Of a stretch of DNA of 10,920 nt, positions 1 to 10,510 are shown piece by piece; position 1 is the first letter of the stretch, and every line of letters begins with the position of its first letter. The notes beneath the pieces were generated by a model. It was not told where the DNA came from, did not search any database, and saw only the letters and a list, made by a program, of their open reading frames with translations. The translations under genes were made by a program, and so were the position numbers. The DNA is from Candidatus Altarchaeum sp. (GTDB taxonomy: Archaea; Altiarchaeota; Altiarchaeia; Altiarchaeales; Altiarchaeaceae). The stretch covers positions 11,993-22,912 of the forward strand of contig JAGWDQ010000129.1 in assembly GCA_018260615.1 (NCBI GenBank), read 5' to 3'.

Positions 1-2
1 TG

Positions 3-686
3 AGATGTCCTATATGTAAAAGTAGCAGAATAAATTATTACGGAACATCAACAACAATGGGCGGAGGATATAAAGGTACCGATGCAAAATATGTATGCGA
101 GGACTGCAGATATGTCGGAGCTTTGATTCTGGATGTAAGTGATGACATTGATGAAAAAGCCGGACAGGAAGTAGAAAAGGACCTGGAAAAAATTAAGAAA
201 GAGATGGATGAAGAAGACAAAAACAAAAATCCTGTTGAAAGTGATTTAAAAGAAATAAAAAAGGAAATGGGTGATTTATATAATAAGTCCATTAAAACTC
301 CAATTGTATCTCAAGAGCCCATTCCTATTGAAATAAAAAATATTCTTGCCGGCGAACTTTATGATTTTATTGTATATGCAAAACGCACTGTTTCCATATT
401 CGCATTAATCATTCAGTTAGGTGTCAGTTTATTTCTTACATTATTCTTTCCTTTTTCAATTTTTGTTCTAATATGGGGTGCCCCCAATATCTTTATTAGT
501 GTTCTTATGCTTTTTGCTTTATTCGTGGGATATTTGGGAATAGATCTGCTAAAATGGATAATTTCTGGCGAAGCAAAAAGAAGCGCATGGTTTATTGGCA
601 ACCCAAAAAGTTTGATAATATATCCAAAAGACAAAAAAAATAAGCTCTCTTGGCCAAGGGGAACTGGCAAATACAATTGGTTTTAA
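3..686 (+). CDS. Zinc-ribbon membrane protein, N-terminal part (5' edge of window; probably the first half of a frameshifted gene)
   Basis: The frame of track ORF 57..686 is open back to position 3 and reads RCPICKSSRINYYGTSTTMGGGYKGTDAKYVCEDCRYVG, i.e. two CxxC pairs (CPIC, CEDC). The window starts with TG, so the ATG probably begins one base before position 1. A charged linker follows, then two hydrophobic helices (VSIFALIIQLGVSLFLTLFFPFSIFVLIWG; IFISVLMLFALFVGYLGIDLL). Confidence 0.75.
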   Translation, partial: RCPICKSSRINYYGTSTTMGGGYKGTDAKYVCEDCRYVGALILDVSDDIDEKAGQEVEKDLEKIKKEMDEEDKNKNPVESDLKEIKKEMGDLYNKSIKTPIVSQEPIPIEIKNILAGELYDFIVYAKRTVSIFALIIQLGVSLFLTLFFPFSIFVLIWGAPNIFISVLMLFALFVGYLGIDLLKWIISGEAKRSAWFIGNPKSLIIYPKDKKNKLSWPRGTGKYNWF

Positions 687-1215
687 TAGCACTCAGAAAG
701 AGTGTTTCATAAAAATAAGTTGGAAAAAATTAAAGAGTTGTGGTTGGAGTAGCGGTTGGAGTAAAGAATCAGGTGATATAGAAATAGTAACGAAAGTAAT
801 GATCCAACCTGATGAGGGCAGCCCCTATCCCGTAACTATATGCATAGGAGGAATTAAAAATGCAGATAACATTGGACAGATAATAAGAAAAAGAATTGAA
901 GAGAACAACCCAATCAATAATAATTCTCATTTATTTCTTTGGGAAGATGTTCCTGAAAATAACACAGAATTTATAGAATTTTTGAATAAAGACATGTATA
1001 TTTCGTGGGTAGAAAATGCAAAAATCAAAAAAAGTGATAATAATGAAATAATAGATGTTACGGATGGAGAAAAATCAATTATTCTTAAACTCAATAAAAG
1101 AGAAAAGAAAGTAAGTTATCTTTCTGAGGTCAGAGAGAATAAGCGCTATATTGGGAGAGGTACCTATTATTACTCTTTGAAAGAGGCTGGTGGCAAGTTA
1201 AGTGTGTGCTATTAA
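640..1215 (+). CDS. Downstream frame (track ORF 799..1215); probable C-terminal part of the preceding gene, with a PH-like segment and a C-terminal LFxW-type domain
   Basis: This frame is stop-free from 619 to 1212, well upstream of the ATG at 799. It reads ISSLGQGELANTIGFNSTQKECFIKISWKKLKSCGWSSGWSKESGDIEIVTKVMIQPDEGSPYPVTICIGGIKNADNIGQIIRKRIEE, which resembles the end of bacterial PH (bPH_2-like) domains that follow two TM helices. The domain call is pattern recognition only. Confidence 0.55.
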   Translation: MSSLGQGELANTIGFNSTQKECFIKISWKKLKSCGWSSGWSKESGDIEIVTKVMIQPDEGSPYPVTICIGGIKNADNIGQIIRKRIEENNPINNNSHLFLWEDVPENNTEFIEFLNKDMYISWVENAKIKKSDNNEIIDVTDGEKSIILKLNKREKKVSYLSEVRENKRYIGRGTYYYSLKEAGGKLSVCY

Positions 1216-1341: not shown

Positions 1342-4300
1342 ATGCTCCTCGAAACCTTGCACATAGTAAATTTCCGCTCTCACAAAAATACAAAGCTCAA
1401 TTTCCAGTACGGAACAACCGTAATTGTCGGAGATAACGGCAGCGGGAAATCAACAATAATTGATGCTGTCCTTTTTGCATTATCCGGCGAAAGATGGGAA
1501 AAACGGGAAGGACTTAAGCTTGATAATTTTATAAGGTGGAATGAAAGCGGAATGTCTGTTTCTTTGTCATTTACAGCAGACGGAGTAAAATACAGAGTGA
1601 AGAGAGGCAAAATTTTAAATCGCAGCACCAGTGCATCATTGGACATACTTAATGAAAACGGCTGGAAGAATATTGCCAGCAGACAGAGGGGCGTTGATGA
1701 GAAACTCGGCGAAATTTTAAATTTAAATGAAATAGATACATCTGTTGTGAGGCAGGGCGAATTAACGAGGATTTTAAAGCAAAAACCGAGTGAAAGAAAG
1801 GAATACTTCCACAAGCTGCTTAATCTTGAAGATATGGAAAAATTTCACTATGACTTTGGAAAGTATGTAAAGGATTTTGATGATAAAGCAAACGAGCTCA
1901 AAGGAAAGGTTGGAAATGAAAACAACATAATAAAAAAGAAGGACAATAAACTTAAAGAGATTGCGGACTTAAAAAAAGAGGGGGAAATTTTGAGAACTGA
2001 TGTGGAAATTTTGAAAAATGAGCTTGCAGAAAAAAAGAAACTTTGCGATGCAGAAGACACAAAAAAAGGGGTCTACATAAAAATTTCAGGCGAAATTTCC
2101 ATCCTTGAAAATAACCTAAAAAATGTCCGAAGCAGGATATGTGAGAAGGAAAAGGAGTTAAAGGATATCGAAGAAATAGAAAAGACAATTCCATCGCTGA
2201 AAGAGGAAGCAAAAAATCACGATGAGTTAAAGGAAAAGAAGGACAAAGCAACTGAAATTTTAAATTTAAAAAACAGATATAATGTTTTTAAAGATAAGGA
2301 AAATGATTACAATAAGCACATTTCAAAAATTTCCGCATTACAACAGGATGAAAACGCTCACACTAAAATTTATGGAGAAATTGAAAATTTAAAGGAAAAA
2401 ATTGCAGGTTTAAAGATATATGTGGAAGAAGTTGCCCGGCTGAACAGAGAGGAAAACGAAACAAAAAAGAAGGCGGCGGATTGCCGGAAATATATAAAAG
2501 AGACAGAGGAAAAGTATTTCAAAATATTCAACGAGAAGGCCGATTTGGAGAAAATAAATAAAATTCCGGGGAAGAGGGAAAATTTACGGAAAGAAATTGA
2601 CAAATTAACAAAGGAAAGGGAAATTTTAAAAGGAAAAGAAAATGAATTAAATGCTGCCATAAAAAATTTAGAAAAGCAAAAAAATACATTGCTTGATGAA
2701 ATTAATAGACAAACAAAAGTAGAAAACGAAACAAAAAAGAAAATAGCGGATTGCTGGAAATATATAGAAGAGACAGAGGAAAAGTATTTCAAAATATTTA
2801 ATGAAAAGCCGGATTTGGAGAAAATAAATAAAATTCCCGGGAAGAGAGAAAATTTAAAGAAAGAGATTGACAAATTAACGAAGGAAAGGGAAATTTTAAA
2901 AGGAAAAGAACACGAATTAAATGCCGCACTGAAAAATTTTGAAAAACAAAGAAAAGAACTTTCGGAAGCAAAATCCGTTTGCCCTGTTTGTGAGTCCTTG
3001 TTACCTGACGACAAAAAGTTCAATTTACTGGGAAATGTTGCCCGGAATAAGGAAAAAACAGCGAATGATTTAAAAGAAGTGCTATGGAAAATAAAGGAAA
3101 TAGAACTGGATAAAAGCAATAAAGACAAACAATTAAGGGCTATTGAGGACATAAATAACGAATTGTTTATAGCAAGATATAATGAATGGACGGACTTAAA
3201 TACAGCCGTTGAAGAAATAAAGAAAGCCCTTTTAAATGCGGAGAATAAAAGCCATGACTATGAAAACGAGGAAAAAAATTTAAAAGAAGGAGCGGACAAA
3301 AATAAAGAAGGAATAAATAATATTGAATTGGACAAAGGCAAAAAAGATGTTATGTTGAAGTCCATTGAAGGCATAAATAACGAATTGTTTATAAAGATGT
3401 CTGATGAACAAACGGAACTAAATGTAATAATTGAACAAATAAAGGAAAATAAAAAAGAGGCGGAAATCAAAAAGACAGAGTATGAAAAGCACAATGACAT
3501 GCTGATTGAAATGACTAAAATTTTTAACGAACTTAAAAAGAAGCATGATGATTATATTGGTTCAAAAAAATTTGTTGAAAGCACAAATATTGAAGAGATA
3601 AAAGAAAATATGAAGAAAATTTTAAATGAAATTAATAACATAATCGGCATGAATAATCTGCCCTGCACAATTGAAAATGTTGAACATTATATTACGGAAG
3701 CAAAAGATAAATTAACTTCTTTGGAAAAAAAGAAAGAGCTTTTGAACAGATATGAGGAAAGGATAAAAAAGAAGGATGAAGTTGCGAAGTTCATTAATGG
3801 GGAAAGAACTAACGAAAATGACTTAACCGGGAAGAAAAACGAACTTACAGGCAAAAAGACAGCTCTTAATTATGATGAAAAAAGGCATAATGAAATTTTA
3901 AAATTTTATGAATATGCCAGAAAGAAGGAGCGGGAAGCAGATAAAAATTTTTGTCTAAATGAGGCGAACATAAAAAATTATGAAAACATACTTAACGATA
4001 TAGAAAGTGATTTAAAGAAAATAGAAGATGCAAAAAAAGAGGAGGAAATTTTAAACGCTTTTATTAATTTTTCAAAGGAAATAAGAGAAAAATTCGGAAG
4101 GAATGGCATTCAAAAAGACATTTCACAGTCATTTTTCCCGATTCTTGAAACATACACAAATAATCTTTTTTCAACATTTGGTTTTCCTTATGACGGCGCT
4201 GAGATATTTGAAGACGAGGAAAACTGCAATATAAATTTAAAAAAAGGAGGGAATACAATATCTTCGGCGTCGCTGAGCGGTGGCGAGAAGAGTGCTTTAT

Positions 4301-4635
4301 CTATTGCCCTGAATGCGGCGTTATCAAAGCTCATAGGAAGGGCGGACTTTCTCATATTAGATGAACCGACGGAGAGTTTGGATGAAGGCAAAATCAGCGA
4401 ATTAATAGAAATTTTAAAGGAATTTAAAGGCGTCTCGCAGTTAATTGTAATTTCACATGACAGGGACTTTAAGAATGCTACGAGGTCAAGGATTGAAATT
4501 TACAAAGAAAATGGAATTTCACACATTGTAGGGGAAGAAGATGAAAATAATGAAAATATAGATGAAAAATTGGGAGAAGAAGATGAAAGTGTCAAAAATT
4601 TAACGAATACACAGCAGGGACTTTTTGAATCTTGA
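1342..4635 (+). CDS. rad50: DNA double-strand break repair ATPase Rad50 (SbcC/SMC family)
   Basis: N-terminal NFRSH and Walker A GDNGSGKS; Q-loop VRQGE; long coiled coil with a central zinc hook CPVC (2980-2991, aa 547-550 of 1097); ABC signature LSGGE; Walker B/D-loop FLILDEPTESLD; H-loop VISHD. Confidence 0.92.
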   Translation: MLLETLHIVNFRSHKNTKLNFQYGTTVIVGDNGSGKSTIIDAVLFALSGERWEKREGLKLDNFIRWNESGMSVSLSFTADGVKYRVKRGKILNRSTSASLDILNENGWKNIASRQRGVDEKLGEILNLNEIDTSVVRQGELTRILKQKPSERKEYFHKLLNLEDMEKFHYDFGKYVKDFDDKANELKGKVGNENNIIKKKDNKLKEIADLKKEGEILRTDVEILKNELAEKKKLCDAEDTKKGVYIKISGEISILENNLKNVRSRICEKEKELKDIEEIEKTIPSLKEEAKNHDELKEKKDKATEILNLKNRYNVFKDKENDYNKHISKISALQQDENAHTKIYGEIENLKEKIAGLKIYVEEVARLNREENETKKKAADCRKYIKETEEKYFKIFNEKADLEKINKIPGKRENLRKEIDKLTKEREILKGKENELNAAIKNLEKQKNTLLDEINRQTKVENETKKKIADCWKYIEETEEKYFKIFNEKPDLEKINKIPGKRENLKKEIDKLTKEREILKGKEHELNAALKNFEKQRKELSEAKSVCPVCESLLPDDKKFNLLGNVARNKEKTANDLKEVLWKIKEIELDKSNKDKQLRAIEDINNELFIARYNEWTDLNTAVEEIKKALLNAENKSHDYENEEKNLKEGADKNKEGINNIELDKGKKDVMLKSIEGINNELFIKMSDEQTELNVIIEQIKENKKEAEIKKTEYEKHNDMLIEMTKIFNELKKKHDDYIGSKKFVESTNIEEIKENMKKILNEINNIIGMNNLPCTIENVEHYITEAKDKLTSLEKKKELLNRYEERIKKKDEVAKFINGERTNENDLTGKKNELTGKKTALNYDEKRHNEILKFYEYARKKEREADKNFCLNEANIKNYENILNDIESDLKKIEDAKKEEEILNAFINFSKEIREKFGRNGIQKDISQSFFPILETYTNNLFSTFGFPYDGAEIFEDEENCNINLKKGGNTISSASLSGGEKSALSIALNAALSKLIGRADFLILDEPTESLDEGKISELIEILKEFKGVSQLIVISHDRDFKNATRSRIEIYKENGISHIVGEEDENNENIDEKLGEEDESVKNLTNTQQGLFES
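2452..2960 (+). repeat. In-frame tandem duplication (270-nt / 90-aa period) in the Rad50 N-terminal arm
   Basis: 2452-2690 versus 2722-2960: 25 mismatches in 239 nt by manual count (about 90% identity), no gaps. Confidence 0.95.
3100..3444 (+). repeat. Older in-frame duplication (222-nt / 74-aa period) in the Rad50 C-terminal arm
   Basis: IELDKSNKDKQLRAIEDINNELFIARYNEWTDLNTAVEEIK (from 3100) versus IELDKGKKDVMLKSIEGINNELFIKMSDEQTELNVIIEQIK (from 3322). ATAAATAACGAATTGTTTATA is identical at 3151 and 3373. Confidence 0.85.
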
Positions 4636-4702
4636 TTTTATGAGAGTTGATTAAAATTTAGTAAATTTTTTAAGTAAAAAGATAATTATTAAATAATTAT
4701 TA

Positions 4703-6001
4703 ATGAATCATCAAAGAATTAAGATGGCTATTGTAAAAAGAGCGGAAAGTTTAGAAGAAATTTATGATATTTTTGATCCAAGACAACCACTTAAAGGAGA
4801 AACCTTAAATAAATTCTATGTTAGTCCATATAAAGCAAATGAACGATTTAAAACATTATTTGAAAAACTTAAAAAACCCATATTAAAATCCAAAGGTTCA
4901 GATAAATTTTTGTTTGGGGGATTTAAAGGATGCGGAAAATCAACGGAATTAAACAGGTTGTGCGAGGATGAAGAAATCATGAATAGATTTTTGGTTGTCA
5001 AGTTTTCAATAAGAGATAAGTTAAATATTGCGGATTTTGATTATAAGGACTTATTAATGGTGTGTACAGCGGAAATTTACAATTGTGCTAAGGCAAAGAA
5101 TATTAAAATAAACGAAGAAGTTCTCAAAGCGATTGAAAACTGGGCATTTCAATTAACTGTTATTAACACAGAAAAGGAAGAAGAAAAAATAGAAGTGGGG
5201 GCAGGAATTGGTTTGGGGATTGATTTAATATTTGCAAAGGTGTTAGGTTGGATAAAATTCGGAAGTGAAATGAGAAAAGAAATGAGAAAAGAAATAGAAC
5301 CAAAAATACCTGAACTATTGGGACATATAAACAGAATGCTTGGAGAAATAAAAAGAAAAACGGATGTTCTTTTGGTTGTTGAAGATATCGACAAACTTTA
5401 TGTAGGTGATGCAGAAAAACTTTTTTCTTCTTATGCTTCGCCATTTTTACAACTCAACTGCAAAGCAATTTTTACATTTCCTTTTGCATTGATGCTGTCT
5501 CCCAACTGGGGCATTGTTTCAAGAACATTTGCAAATCCTATTATTCTTCCGAATGTAACCATTCATGAAAAGAGGAGCAACAAAAAAGTAGAGGAAAACT
5601 ATGCAATAATGAGGGAAATTTTTATGAAACGGGCAAATGAGAATTTAATAGCTCAAGATGCCCTTGATGAATGCATAAAATATTCCGGAGGGGTCATATA
5701 TGATTTTATAAGAATTATAAGAAACGCAGCAAATCACGCGAGTGTTGAAGAGAATAATAAGATTGAAAAAAATGATGTTAAAATAACTATTATGGAGATG
5801 AGAGAAAACTATACTTTTTTAAATGAGGAACACATAGAAAAATTGAAATATGTTTATAAGAAAAAAGAGTTAAGTATGGGAAAGGGAGAAGAAGGAAGCA
5901 AATCTGTTATGGAACTGCTTGGAAGTTTGAGTGTCCTAAAGTATTATAACTCGGAAGAATGGTTTGATGTGCATCCGATAATTGAATATAAAATGAAATG
6001 A
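4703..6001 (+). CDS. P-loop ATPase, STAND/KAP-like (AAA_16-type) family
   Basis: Walker A GGFKGCGKSTEL (from 4916); Walker B LLVVEDIDK; N-terminal FDPRQPL; post-NTPase helical motif SGGVIYDFIRIIRNAA; C-terminal WFDVHP. Alternative start at ATG 4724 (MAIVKRA). Confidence 0.85.
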   Translation: MNHQRIKMAIVKRAESLEEIYDIFDPRQPLKGETLNKFYVSPYKANERFKTLFEKLKKPILKSKGSDKFLFGGFKGCGKSTELNRLCEDEEIMNRFLVVKFSIRDKLNIADFDYKDLLMVCTAEIYNCAKAKNIKINEEVLKAIENWAFQLTVINTEKEEEKIEVGAGIGLGIDLIFAKVLGWIKFGSEMRKEMRKEIEPKIPELLGHINRMLGEIKRKTDVLLVVEDIDKLYVGDAEKLFSSYASPFLQLNCKAIFTFPFALMLSPNWGIVSRTFANPIILPNVTIHEKRSNKKVEENYAIMREIFMKRANENLIAQDALDECIKYSGGVIYDFIRIIRNAANHASVEENNKIEKNDVKITIMEMRENYTFLNEEHIEKLKYVYKKKELSMGKGEEGSKSVMELLGSLSVLKYYNSEEWFDVHPIIEYKMK

Positions 6002-7677
6002 AATCAACAGAGTTATTAATTAATGAGTTAAAACTTGCAAAGGGAAAAGGAGCAATAATTTTTATTACTTGTGAAAATTACATGATTGATGAGTTCAAAG
6101 AAAAACTGAATGCTGCTTTAAAAGATATTGTGAAATTTGAGGATATTTTTCTTTCTTCCGAGTCATTTGAGAAAAAATACCTGCCGGGAATATTATACAA
6201 CAGAAAGGTTGAAGGAATTAATGAAAATGTTGTCTTCAATATCTTTGGATTTGAAAAAGCAAGACCAGAAATTTACGGATACATACAACTTCACAGAGAA
6301 ACAATTGCGGGGATAAACAGACCTATATTAATATGGGTTCCCGAATATGTGTTTAAGGAAATTCCGCTTAAAGCACCTGATTTTTACAGATTCAGGTCAA
6401 GTGTTTACCGGTTCATTGAAGAAGAAAAAGAGGACGGGGCGATGAAGTCAGTGACAACTCCATCAAAAGATGTAAAAACCGAAATTTTGAAATTTGCAAA
6501 AGATGAAGAGGAAATAAAAGAAATAAAGAAACTGCTCGAAATTGATAATTTTCTTTTAAAGGATGCGGACGATGATGGGAAAATTTCTGTTTATTCGGCA
6601 CTTGTAGATAATTATGCAAAATTAAGGGACTTTGAAAAAGCAGAAGAAGTTGGCAAAGAAGGCAGGAAAATAGCAGAAAAAATTAAAAACGAATTCTGGA
6701 TTTCATTATTTTGTTTTAAATTGGGCAGAATTTATTATTATAGAAAACGCTCTGATGAAGCTGAGAAAGAATACAGAGAAGCAATACGGCTAAATCCAAA
6801 TCTTGCCGAAGCACATAATGGTTTAGGACTTTTATTGTATGATTTAAAACGCTATGAAGAAGCGGAGAAGGAGTACAGAGAAGCGCTCAAAATAAATCCA
6901 AATTATACTGAAGCACATAATAATTTGGGAAATTTATTAGACGATTTAAAACGATATGAAGAAGCGGAGAAGGAATACAAAGAGGCGCTAAAGCTCAATT
7001 CGAATTATGCAGATGCACACAATAATTTAGGTGTCTCATTGCAAAATTTAAAACGCTATGAAGAAGCAGAGAAGGAATACAGAGAAGCAATACGGCTAAA
7101 TCCAGATTATGCTGAAGCACATAATAATTTAGGAATTTTATTGAAAAATTTAAAACGATTTGAAGAAGCAGAGAAGGAATACAGAGAAGCAATACGGCTA
7201 AATCCAAATTATGCTGATGCACATAATAATTTAGGAGTTTTATTGGATGATTTAAAACGCTATGAAGAAGCGGAGAAGGAATACAGAGAAGCAATACGGC
7301 TAAATCCAGATTATGCTGATGCACATAATAATTTAGGAGTTTTATTGGATGATTTAAAACGCTATGAAGAAGCGGAGAAAGAATACAGAGAAGCAATACG
7401 GATAAATCCAAATGATGCTGAGGCACATTATAATTTAGGAAATTTATTGAAAGATTTAAAACGCTATGAAGAAGCAGAGAAAGAATACAGAGAAGCAATA
7501 CGGCTAAATTCAGATTATGCCAATGCACATAATAATTTGGGACTTTTACATATGCAAATTGGAAAAATTGATGATGCAAGAAGAGAAGTTTTAAAAGCAA
7601 AGGACTTATTTGAAAAGCAAGGAAAAACCGACGAGGTTAAGCGTTGTAATGAAATTTTAAAAAATTTTAAATTTTGA
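5998..7677 (+). CDS. TPR protein with an N-terminal probable inactive P-loop-like domain
   Basis: ATGA start/stop overlap with the ATPase at 5998-6001. The N-terminal ~140 aa is an alpha/beta segment ending LHRETIAGINRPILIWVP...APDFYRFRSSVYRF and lacks Walker A. Eight near-identical 34-aa TPR units and a capping helix follow. Confidence 0.9.
   Translation: MKSTELLINELKLAKGKGAIIFITCENYMIDEFKEKLNAALKDIVKFEDIFLSSESFEKKYLPGILYNRKVEGINENVVFNIFGFEKARPEIYGYIQLHRETIAGINRPILIWVPEYVFKEIPLKAPDFYRFRSSVYRFIEEEKEDGAMKSVTTPSKDVKTEILKFAKDEEEIKEIKKLLEIDNFLLKDADDDGKISVYSALVDNYAKLRDFEKAEEVGKEGRKIAEKIKNEFWISLFCFKLGRIYYYRKRSDEAEKEYREAIRLNPNLAEAHNGLGLLLYDLKRYEEAEKEYREALKINPNYTEAHNNLGNLLDDLKRYEEAEKEYKEALKLNSNYADAHNNLGVSLQNLKRYEEAEKEYREAIRLNPDYAEAHNNLGILLKNLKRFEEAEKEYREAIRLNPNYADAHNNLGVLLDDLKRYEEAEKEYREAIRLNPDYADAHNNLGVLLDDLKRYEEAEKEYREAIRINPNDAEAHYNLGNLLKDLKRYEEAEKEYREAIRLNSDYANAHNNLGLLHMQIGKIDDARREVLKAKDLFEKQGKTDEVKRCNEILKNFKF
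6745..7560 (+). repeat. Eight tandem 102-nt TPR-coding units
   Basis: Units start at 6745, 6847, 6949, 7051, 7153, 7255, 7357 and 7459. Consensus KRYEEAEKEYREAIRLNPxYAxAHNNLGxLLxxL. Units 5 and 6 differ at 4 of 102 nt. Confidence 0.97.
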
Positions 7678-8356: not shown

Positions 8357-8725
8357 ATGAACATCATAATACTTGGCACAGGCGGCTGCGGGAAAACATC
8401 ATTTACGGGAAGATTCGGAAAATATTTAAAAAGGAATCATTACAAGGTAAAATTTTTAAATTTAGATCCCGGAGTTGTGTCTTTTGATTACAAAGCGGAC
8501 TATGACATAAGAGATAAATTTAACGTCAAAAAAATTATGGACGAAGAAAATCTCGGCCCGAACGGAGCAATGATACAGGCAATGGAAAAAGTTGTACACA
8601 AAAAGAAGGTAGATTATATTTCATTTTCAATATTTGGCTCTAAATCCTTGATAAAAAAATATTGGCATCTATTGAAGTTTGCGGGTAACGAAATTTTGGA
8701 ATGTGCCGATATAAATTTTGAGTAG
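8357..8725 (+). pseudogene. Truncated GPN-loop GTPase (ATP_bind_1 family), N-terminal third only
   Basis: Walker A GTGGCGKT, NLDPG, YDIRD and the signature LGPNGA are present. Similarity ends near MEKV (about 8590-8610). No DTPGQ (G3) motif was seen in any forward frame before the stop at 8723-8725. The family is normally about twice this length. Confidence 0.8.
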
Positions 8726-8983: not shown

Positions 8984-10510
8984 TTACTTTAAATTCACCA
9001 ATAAATTTTCTATAATTTTTGTATCATACTCTCTTCCTTGCTCTCTAAATAATTTTAACGCTATTTCAAGTTCTCTCTTTGCATTTTCCTTTTCTCCTGT
9101 TTTCATATATAAAAGCCCCAAACTTGCATGTGCTTCAGCATATATAGGGGCTAATTCTATTGCATGATTAAAATCCTCAGTGGCATTAGGATAATTTCCA
9201 AGTTTAACATAAACCATTCCCCTATTATAATATGACTCAGAATCATTTGGCCCCAATTCAATTACCTTACTAAAATCTTTAAGGGTATTATTATAATTTC
9301 CAATTTTGTCATAGCTTACGCCTCTATTGAAATATACCATAGATATATTTGGATTTAATTCTATTGCTTTGTTATAGTTTTCTATTGCCATTTTATGAAG
9401 ATTTTTCATACTATATGCAAATCCTCGGTTGTTATAAGCTAAGTAATTTGGATCTAATTCTATCACTTTGTCATAATCTGCTATCACTTTGTCATAATCT
9501 TTTTTTTCTAGATAAGCAAGACCTCTGTTGTCATAAGCAATTGCATATTTATTATCTAACTCTATTGCTTGATCATAGTCAGATATTGCCTTGTCATAAT
9601 CTCTCTTATTAGCGTAAGCACTTCCTCTGTTGTTATATATGACTGCATCTTTCATACCCAAAGTTATTGCTTCATCATAATTTTGTATCGCCTTGTCATA
9701 ATCTCCTTTATTGGCGTAAACAGTTCCTCGACTTTTGTAAGCACTTGCTAAATTTGAATTTAATTCTATTGCTTTGCTAAGGTCTTGTATTGCTTTATCA
9801 TAATCTCCTTTATCGGCGTAAACACTTCCTCGACTAGCGTAAGCGAATGCATAATCGGAATCTATCTTTATTGCTTCATTATAATCTTTTATGGCTTTCT
9901 CATATTCGCCTTTATTTGCATAAACATTACCTCTATTATGATGTGCTTCTTTATAATTCGGACTTATACCTATTGCGGTTGTGTAATCTTCTATTGCAGC
10001 ACTGTAGTTGCCTTTCTTTGCATAAGCAAATCCTCTATTATTATAGGTTAGTGCAGAATTATTATTTAATCTAATTGCATTATCAAAATCATTTATTGCT
10101 TCATCATAATTTCCAGTGAAAATGTTTATAATTCCTTGAATACAATGCTGATTAAAATAGGTAGGTATGTTTTTACTTAAAGTAGTAACTTGGTCAGGAG
10201 TAATATTGTATTCTTTTAACATTCTTTCAAATTTTTCTTTATCTTCTTCTGTTGCACTTAATTTTGAGAACTCAACACTTGTATATATAAGATTCAGTTG
10301 TTTTATAGTTTCATTATATTGTTTTTCGGTTTCTAAACTACTTTTTTCGTAAAAATAATTACTGACAAAATAACCCACACAAATACTAATAATAAATGTA
10401 ATCAATATCGACCAAACAAACATTCTAAAACTAATTCTTGTTTTATATTTATTCTTAAATAATTTAATAAATTTTGTAACTATTGACAACCCCCAATTTT
10501 TCAATATCAT
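8984..10510 (-). CDS. Membrane-anchored TPR protein (about 11 TPRs)
   Basis: A single hydrophobic helix (MFVWSILITFIISICVGYFV, aa 30-49), a short helical stalk, then about 11 canonical TPRs (AYNNRGxAYxxKGxYDKAIxDYxxAIELxP) and a capping helix. Confidence 0.92.
   Translation of the reverse strand: MILKNWGLSIVTKFIKLFKNKYKTRISFRMFVWSILITFIISICVGYFVSNYFYEKSSLETEKQYNETIKQLNLIYTSVEFSKLSATEEDKEKFERMLKEYNITPDQVTTLSKNIPTYFNQHCIQGIINIFTGNYDEAINDFDNAIRLNNNSALTYNNRGFAYAKKGNYSAAIEDYTTAIGISPNYKEAHHNRGNVYANKGEYEKAIKDYNEAIKIDSDYAFAYASRGSVYADKGDYDKAIQDLSKAIELNSNLASAYKSRGTVYANKGDYDKAIQNYDEAITLGMKDAVIYNNRGSAYANKRDYDKAISDYDQAIELDNKYAIAYDNRGLAYLEKKDYDKVIADYDKVIELDPNYLAYNNRGFAYSMKNLHKMAIENYNKAIELNPNISMVYFNRGVSYDKIGNYNNTLKDFSKVIELGPNDSESYYNRGMVYVKLGNYPNATEDFNHAIELAPIYAEAHASLGLLYMKTGEKENAKRELEIALKLFREQGREYDTKIIENLLVNLK
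9460..9500. repeat. Exact 20-nt direct repeat (21-nt period) within a TPR
   Basis: CTATCACTTTGTCATAATCT at 9460-9479 and 9481-9500, encoding DYDKVIA/DYDKVIE on the minus strand. Confidence 0.9.

Follow-up and report, generated by a model that had tools for sequence, protein, structure and literature searches.

Two overlapping genes in the genome of Candidatus Altarchaeum sp. raise the question of whether they encode the two halves of a single molecular switch and, if so, what such a switch would be used for. The window, that is, the whole stretch of DNA analysed here, comprises 10,920 nucleotides of contig JAGWDQ010000129.1 (assembly GCA_018260615.1, positions 11,993 to 22,912, forward strand), with a G+C content of about 32%. 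In it, a gene for an ATPase of 432 amino acids (P0001, 4703..6001, + strand), predicted to comprise N-terminal helices, the AAA+ base, the lid and, at its C-terminus, a winged helix, is followed by the gene of a partner of 559 amino acids (P0002, 5998..7677, + strand), in which an N-terminal domain lacking Walker motifs (hereafter, the N-domain) precedes an acidic linker and an array of tetratricopeptide repeats (TPRs). The two frames are joined by an ATGA overlap (5998..6001, + strand), formed by the ATG of the partner (5998-6000) and the TGA of the ATPase (5999-6001).

It is proposed here that this pair may be the constant core of a widespread and unnamed two-protein switch of the NLR/STAND type (nucleotide-binding leucine-rich repeat receptors and signal transduction ATPases with numerous domains), controlled by arginine 133 of the partner (R133) and likely involved in conflict or immune sensing, a reading to which we give an even chance. 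A heteromeric NLR-like switch is the most likely nature of the pair, whose role would most likely be the sensing of an invader or of some other foreign or abnormal protein in conflict or immunity; that it constitutes an immune system is possible.

Pairing, co-divergence and distribution of the two genes

In the protein collection, the ATPase family numbers more than 157 members, and one-per-species genomes of archaea and bacteria contain more than 565 stretches that match it. Among the archaeal carriers are Methanothrix/Methanocrinis, ANME-1/Methanophagales, Methanoperedens and Methanosarcinales, and the bacterial ones include Chloroflexota, Bacteroidota, Chlorobium, Desulfobacteria, Aminicenantes, Tectomicrobia, Sericytochromatia and others. 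Both the ATPase and the N-domain family are also present on cyanobacterial plasmids. A survey of 85 homologous ATPase loci, out of the more than 565 matching stretches, revealed that a gene starting with the N-domain lies directly downstream, on the same strand, in at least 78, and that the remaining loci are mostly interrupted by contig ends or frame breaks. Similar pairs of an ATPase and a TPR protein headed by an APDF motif, which the initial annotation had associated mostly with bacteria, occur in both archaea and bacteria. Overlap of the two frames is the commonest gene arrangement, being present in 43 of the 78 pairs (by 4 bp in 21 of them), with another 20 pairs lying within 30 bp, when the start of the partner is picked heuristically. 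Moreover, the pairwise identities of the ATPases and those of their cognate N-domains are correlated (r = 0.86, 3003 pairs). The pairing is not due to chance.

These data bear directly on the simplest alternative, according to which the two genes are unrelated neighbours, or the decayed remnant of a single-chain STAND-TPR gene, without any joint function. The sole point in its favour is that no function has been demonstrated, whereas near-universal pairing in two domains of life, overlapping frames and co-divergence speak against it, as do the intact conserved motifs of both proteins and the identity of the DNA across strains (see below). Contradicted already by the comparative data, this explanation is regarded as extremely improbable.

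The genome from which the window derives contains exactly two N-domains, with one ATPase paralogue next to each. The other pair of this genome, whose frames overlap as well, is located on contig C96 (approximately 24430-26222, - strand, locus L006), and its identity to the pair of the window is 34% for the ATPase and 25% for the N-domain. Within the genus, the pair is present in two of the three other genomes; it was found in none of 37 further genomes of the class. Outside the genus, the closest ATPase (53% identity) is found on contigs with neighbours of Bacteroidota type. This patchy distribution, together with a nearest relative in a Bacteroidota context, argues for horizontal transfer. 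A homologue of the ATPase with 79% identity has been located in assembly GCA_000821205.1 (PRJEB6121), obtained from a groundwater metagenome.

An active ATPase and a partner with a putative decayed AAA+ core

The initial annotation had described an ATPase in which Walker A and B are both intact and whose gene overlaps the following one by ATGA; both features have been located, and the motifs are near-invariant in 84 homologues. Walker A (G-F-K-G-C-G-K-S-T, amino acids 73-81, 4919..4945, + strand) is invariant, with G73, G76, G78, K79, S80 and T81 conserved in 100% of them. The Walker B region (L-L-V-V-E-D-I-D-K, amino acids 223-231, 5369..5395, + strand) has the form hhhhEDxDK, which we take to resemble the Walker B of KAP proteins, and conserves D228 in 97%, D230 in 94% and K231 in 97% of the homologues. 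Full conservation has also been observed for T258, at the sensor-1 position, R310 and G330, and the winged-helix motif retains Y414 and W420 in 100%, P425 in 98% and H424 in 90%; G330 and H424 might at most correspond to the GxP motif in HD1 and to the nucleotide-contacting His (MHD) in the winged helix of STAND proteins. Only about 58% of these ATPases possess an arginine in helix 4 at the place canonical for an arginine finger.

The alignment-based structure model of P0001 (predicted local distance difference test, pLDDT, 87.8) places a helical insert of about 115 amino acids between strands 2 and 3. Its best structural neighbours in a VIA scan are Cdc6/Orc1 proteins (Z 15-17), TnsC also being among the top ones, and the archaeal Walker-type ATPases PAB2304 and SSO1545 are aligned over nearly the full length (Z about 15). 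The nucleotide-binding oligomerisation domains (NODs) of plant NLRs (Z about 13), CED-4, Dark and MalT follow with Z values of 11-13.7, and further neighbours are RdrA, BrxC and MuB. On this model, P0001 is predicted to consist of an AAA+ base, a lid and a winged helix, a minimal NOD layout. With regard to STAND membership (Leipe et al. 2004), the protein has a P-loop nucleotide-binding domain (NBD) with Walker A and B and, on the predicted model only, the NOD architecture of NBD, helical lid and winged helix; the sensor repeats, and usually an effector, that a single-chain STAND protein would carry are lacking, as P0001 stops after the winged helix and the TPRs are on the next protein.

No family was assigned to P0001 or to the N-domain by Pfam, NCBIfam or PADLOC, so that a match to an already named system, which according to the initial annotation would have cancelled the novelty, is not found in these resources. 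Sequence searches of the PDB came back empty, with no solved structure matching P0001, and KAP_NTPase (PF07693) gave no match to it even at E <= 5. Three of its homologues exceed the Pfam KAP_NTPase cut-off of 20 (20.6-29.3 bits), some others show sub-threshold matches to AAA_16, ATPase_2 and nSTAND models, and a cyanobacterial member carries the NCBI annotation 'KAP family NTPase'. Taking into account the KAP_NTPase and sub-threshold matches, the family is placed at the boundary between KAP, STAND and Orc proteins, outside any named family. A reading of amino acids 300-369 as a HEPN domain was also considered, given weak Pfam matches to Ribonuc_2-5A and HEPN families and the motif R-N-A-A-N-H (window 5720-5737, amino acids 340-345), which fits the HEPN Rx4H pattern (R340-x4-H345). 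However, even the homologue with 79% identity lacks this histidine, and the segment belongs to the AAA+ lid; this reading was thus rejected.

The affinity with KAP proteins leads to a different explanation of the pair, namely, that the ATPase is a KAP-type abortive-infection protein and itself the toxic output, acting, for example, on the membrane by means of a hydrophobic insert, and that the N-domain/TPR protein is an inhibitor that lets go upon a trigger, in a manner similar to toxin-antitoxin systems. The KAP members PifA and Tmn mediate phage exclusion. Besides the homologues above the Pfam cut-off and the cyanobacterial annotation, this explanation is favoured by the helical insert, found at the position of the KAP membrane helices, which in P0001 contains a glycine-rich hydrophobic segment (amino acids 163-187, 5189..5263, + strand) with a maximum Kyte-Doolittle(19) value of 1.67, borderline for a membrane helix. 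It is also favoured by the copy of the pair on megaplasmid pREC1 of Acaryochloris marina (127286-134355, L116), where an ATPase of the same family, annotated as 'KAP family NTPase', overlaps an N-domain protein of about 1900 amino acids ending in WD40 propellers, its surroundings including HicAB, an integrase and a NACHT gene. Nevertheless, P0001 itself has no match to the KAP model, the family median of the same hydropathy maximum is 1.28, under the transmembrane level, the partner gene lies downstream of the ATPase, and nothing indicates that the ATPase is toxic. Judging from its sequence, the insert does not appear to be clearly membrane-spanning (in the model of P0001, pLDDT falls below 50 at amino acids 158-170, a stretch that runs into the glycine-rich segment, where most members of the family are less hydrophobic). 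A toxic KAP-type ATPase is thus considered quite improbable.

As for the partner, every detail that had been reported for it is present: its N-domain (amino acids 1-145, 5998..6432, + strand) has no Walker A or B and no GK[ST] after the first strand, includes the residues R100-E101, P109-x-x-x-W113, A126-P-D-F129, R133-S134 and F139, and is followed by TPRs. Walker A and B are absent from 88 of 88 homologues, and an Asp or Glu at the end of strand 3 is found in just 20-30% of them. The lack of a Gly/Lys/Ser-Thr loop pattern and the scarcity of this acidic residue indicate that nucleotide binding has been lost across the N-domain family, which would therefore be a family of pseudo-ATPases. Other positions have been maintained, including R100 (94%), A126 (94%), D128 (95%) and R133 (99%), and the conserved elements are L96-N97-x-x-R100-E101 in helix 3, W113 in strand 4 and A126-P-D128 in helix 4.

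A model of the N-domain built from 46 homologues (pLDDT 82.5) is ordered up to about residue 140, with a disordered linker after it, and displays the beta-alpha-beta order of the AAA+ core in a five-stranded alpha/beta arrangement. Foldseek retrieved AAA+ proteins only, and an exhaustive VIA scan aligned about 135 of the 145 residues to AAA+ cores with Z values of 10-11 and a root-mean-square deviation of about 3 A, the structural neighbours being Orc1/Cdc6, ORC (origin recognition complex) subunits, RFC, Pex1/6, NSF-D2, TnsC and the STAND module of Avs5. On the predicted structure, therefore, the N-domain is a decayed AAA+ core, in agreement with the earlier suggestion of a dead NTPase domain derived from a P-loop fold. 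In AAA+ proteins, the trans-acting arginine finger sits where helix 4 ends, ahead of strand 5 (the second region of homology). The codon of R133 (6394..6396, + strand) specifies a residue that the model places between helix 4 and strand 5, and this topology suggests that R133 may correspond to the AAA+ arginine finger and is a candidate to act in trans.

A profile search with the N-domain in a library clustered at 50% identity yielded 4927 clusters at E <= 0.001, and in all but one of the best 150 of the 4927 clusters the domain is at the protein N-terminus. In P0002, it is followed by an acidic linker predicted with low confidence (amino acids 146-189, 6433..6564, + strand; pLDDT below 50 at amino acids 146-164) and by the TPR array, a putative sensor (6565..7677, + strand), which consists of degenerate first repeats, eight near-identical repeats of 34 amino acids and a capping helix. 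Eight TPR stretches are recognised by Pfam, the coding sequence contains a tandem array at 6744-7548 (102-bp unit, 7.9 copies), and it is only through the TPRs that P0002 matches PADLOC models.

The initial annotation had also suggested that the dead domain docks on the ATPase, for which complex prediction gives weak support: with ATPase, ATP and N-domain, the median score was 0.53 versus 0.00 for the best control, the runs shared at least 63% of contacts and the pLDDT of the partner was at least 77. The mark set for this score is passed by 58 of 80 solved complexes and by 2 of 110 mismatched pairs, but passes with a score of at most 0.60 account for only 7 of those 80 solved complexes and for both of the mismatches.

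A mechanism can be outlined from these elements. The pseudo-AAA+ domain would pack on the ATPase as a pseudo-subunit, supplying or withholding R133, and the ligand state of the TPR array would thereby set the ATP turnover or the oligomerisation of the ATPase, which would serve as transducer or output by way of the winged helix, the large helical insert or partners that it recruits. The analysis establishes the modelled folds, which motifs were lost and which were kept, the strict pairing of the genes, their co-divergence, the variable C-termini and the variation of the TPRs between strains; docking of the partner, the use of R133 as an arginine finger, the sensing of a ligand and an immune role are inferred.

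Variable modules and genomic surroundings

TPRs follow the N-domain in 69 of 73 partners, whose total length ranges from about 300 to about 1200 amino acids. The non-standard tails comprise DUF4062-NACHT-FGE-sulfatase, NACHT-FGE-sulfatase and AAA_16-TPR; TPR-ParB and TPR-TIR_2-Lcl_C architectures have also been found, as well as one ParB-bearing next gene, a protein of Nostoc formed by the N-domain only and, at one Bacteroidia locus, an Mrr-type nuclease gene overlapping that of the partner. A word-indexed search for longer N-domain proteins returned 10 matches and added little. Thus, the statement that no effector is visible holds at the locus of the window and fails among relatives in which TIR, ParB-like, Mrr or NACHT-FGE-sulfatase modules are fused to the partner or abut it. 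A constant core of ATPase and N-domain with swappable sensor or effector modules is the typical pattern of prokaryotic conflict systems.

This variety admits a broader reading, in which the N-domain is a universal docking adaptor, and sensors bearing TPR, NACHT-FGE-sulfatase, WD40 or TIR modules plug into one ORC/KAP-like ATPase via a donated arginine finger. The ATPase would then be the executioner or amplifier in a new NLR-like wiring common to archaea and bacteria. We consider it unlikely that the scheme holds in this general form.

Variation is also found between strains, and it points in the same direction as the variable modules. In six independent assemblies, the ATPase gene has no differences in its 1299 nucleotides and the first 740 nucleotides of the partner gene are identical too. 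The partners of these strains have either eight or six TPRs, with residues differing at a few repeat positions, although the difference in repeat number comes from short-read assemblies and assembly collapse may explain part of it, which lessens its value for the proposed switch. In the strains with six repeats, the last 1 kb of the Rad50-like gene located upstream (window 3636-4635 versus L112-L114) differs at 25-28 nucleotides, about 2.5%. Such a diverged tail beside 2 kb of identical sequence (ATPase plus 740 nucleotides) suggests that the pair has recently undergone a sweep or recombination.

Several further observations weigh against a conflict switch. As to enrichment in defence islands, proposed in the initial annotation as a check, the genes around the pair are for the most part housekeeping, and defence genes show no clear excess among 148 non-redundant neighbouring open reading frames (ORFs), only a handful of which match PADLOC models at E <= 1e-10, some as IscS-like or ABC-like look-alikes. 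In the window, the surrounding genes code for Rad50, a rhomboid protease and a fragment of a GTPase. No third gene or effector is conserved across lineages in the loci examined, and no copies of the pair were found in the phage collection. In 18 Chloroflexota loci (L061, L064, L069, L105 and 14 further ones) the pair is preceded by an MraZ-like gene; farther upstream, in the Anaerolineae/Chloroflexota loci where this was examined, come genes for a histidine kinase of 7TM-GAF type and for a response regulator of LuxR type. The array looks like stable, vertically inherited regulatory wiring. Finally, hhalign found no sequence homology between the profiles of N-domain and ATPase (probability about 1%), and the AAA+ assignment of the former consequently rests on predicted structure. 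An origin of the N-domain by duplication of the ATPase is, by the same comparison, unsupported at the sequence level.

The Chloroflexota pair is usually followed by a second TPR protein. At these loci, an extra N-domain/TPR gene is often found about 5 kb upstream.

Such surroundings would be expected if the pair were a non-immune regulatory or remodelling device, in which the TPR adaptor brings a client or signal and the ATPase remodels a complex or binds DNA by its winged helix, in the way of STAND regulators of the MalT/AfsR type or of AAA+ adaptor pairs. Together with the housekeeping context and the few PADLOC matches in the 148 neighbours, this possibility is favoured by the Anaerolineae array of histidine kinase, LuxR-type regulator, MraZ-like gene, ATPase, N-domain/TPR protein and further TPR protein, by the structural neighbours that act on DNA (Cdc6/Orc1, TnsC, MuB and MalT) and by the absence of an effector from most loci. 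It fits poorly with a patchy distribution in which the nearest relative belongs to the other domain of life, with the variants carrying TIR, NACHT-FGE-sulfatase, ParB-like or Mrr modules, with a TPR array that turns over between strains while the ATPase gene stays unchanged, and with the several paralogous pairs that coexist within one genome. On balance, a non-immune regulatory or remodelling pair is held to be somewhat unlikely, and the NLR/STAND-type switch is retained as the preferred reading.

Regarding the remaining features of the window, an AT-rich spacer of 67 bp (4636..4702, + strand), which separates the stop codon of the Rad50-like gene from the start codon of the ATPase gene, is the probable promoter or leader of the pair. 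The Rad50-like gene upstream of it (1342-4635, + strand) encodes a protein that scores far under the NCBIfam Rad50 cut-offs and is matched as well by the LmuB models of Lamassu; despite its low scores, it is the best Rad50 candidate of the genome. A functional tie between the pair and Rad50 was considered and rejected, since only close relatives (68-100% identity) retain the adjacency, which neither the 79% homologue nor any other lineage shows. Farther upstream (window 1-1215), a gene is seemingly broken into two frames (3-686 and 799-1215), neither of which matched any family.

On the other side, a rhomboid protease gene is convergent with the pair and lies 17 bp beyond the end of the partner. 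It is followed by an ORF of 122 amino acids (8357-8725, + strand) that matches the GPN-loop GTPase family PF03029 over no more than its first 82 or so positions out of 240. In the strain assemblies, a short ORF is found at the same place, of 122 amino acids in one and of 98-111 in three others, some of these ORFs ending at contig ends; this recurrence points to a stable fragment or short variant and not to a sequencing error. Last, a second TPR protein of 508 amino acids with about 10 repeats (8984-10510, - strand) has no pseudo-AAA+ N-domain, and since the genome has just two of these domains, its gene is not a third partner.

Relation to known systems

Among published concepts, the closest is a mobile unit of two genes, reported in 2021 by Kaur, Iyer, Burroughs and Aravind (PMC8195603), which encodes an active and an inactive STAND NTPase of a Dap3/CR-ATPase-like family. 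In the inactive NTPase, the NTP-binding motifs are eroded and the arginine finger is kept, as it is in the active one, and a hetero-oligomer was predicted (PMC8195603). Compared by description, both cases share two adjacent genes for proteins with an NTPase fold, one of them eroded with a retained arginine (whose equivalence we infer), and an inactive partner that holds the variable modules. In contrast, both proteins of the published operon are full STAND modules, the inactive one being fused mainly to GT4 or HEPN, and the operon is bacterial, whereas in the present pair, which is also archaeal, the inactive part is just an AAA+ core of 145 amino acids, mostly followed by TPRs. Methanothrix, a carrier of the present pair, does not figure in the supplements of PMC8195603, and no GT4 or HEPN fusions were found in the partners scanned, among the matches listed (25 families).

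With Avs/AVAST proteins, bacterial NACHT proteins and eukaryotic NLRs, the pair has in common the NBD-lid-winged-helix fold, sensors of TPR, WD40 or FGE-sulfatase type, fast-changing repeats and, in some variants, TIR. Unlike these single chains with an N-terminal effector, it splits sensor and ATPase into two proteins, presumably linked via the pseudo-AAA+ domain, and is usually effector-free, and no PADLOC model, of Avs/AVAST or any other named or candidate defence system, matches P0001. In the KAP NTPases (PF07693; PifA, Tmn), the part running from Walker A to Walker B is similar and likewise holds a large insert, but P0001 is below the PF07693 threshold and the insert of its family shows no clear membrane helices; to our knowledge, KAP proteins have not been described with a pseudo-AAA+/TPR partner. 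Cdc6/Orc1 and the mixed rings of active and inactive AAA+ subunits (ORC, clamp loader delta-prime) provide the best structural matches of both proteins, as well as the precedent of an inactive subunit donating an arginine to its active neighbour. They differ in that there is no sequence-family match, and in that the present pair is also bacterial, is linked to TPRs and has nothing tying it to replication.

The ternary iSTAND and iSTAND2 systems (MoxR-vWA-iSTAND), which are predicted conflict systems (PMC7159879), similarly combine an active AAA+ ATPase with a protein whose STAND-like module is inactive. Their active ATPase is a MoxR, while that of the present pair is ORC/STAND-like, and no MoxR or vWA genes are among the recurring neighbours of the latter. 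No description of the ATPase/N-domain pair was found in the literature, which constitutes weak evidence as the coverage of the search was incomplete. Taken together, the features shared with named systems and the distinct architecture point to a variant form of conflict or signalling switch of the NLR/STAND type that belongs to no named family.

If this is true, the pair would represent a large cross-domain class of NLR-like switches, with sensor and motor on separate proteins coupled by a pseudo-enzyme, and would extend to sensing the logic of active and inactive subunits known from ORC and clamp loaders. It would provide a simple two-protein model for the gating of an AAA+ ATP site by a repeat sensor. 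Should the pair be regulatory instead, it would still be an unnamed and widespread signalling module; as the proposed switch, it would be a candidate innate-immune sensor for archaea, including the uncultured lineages of groundwater.

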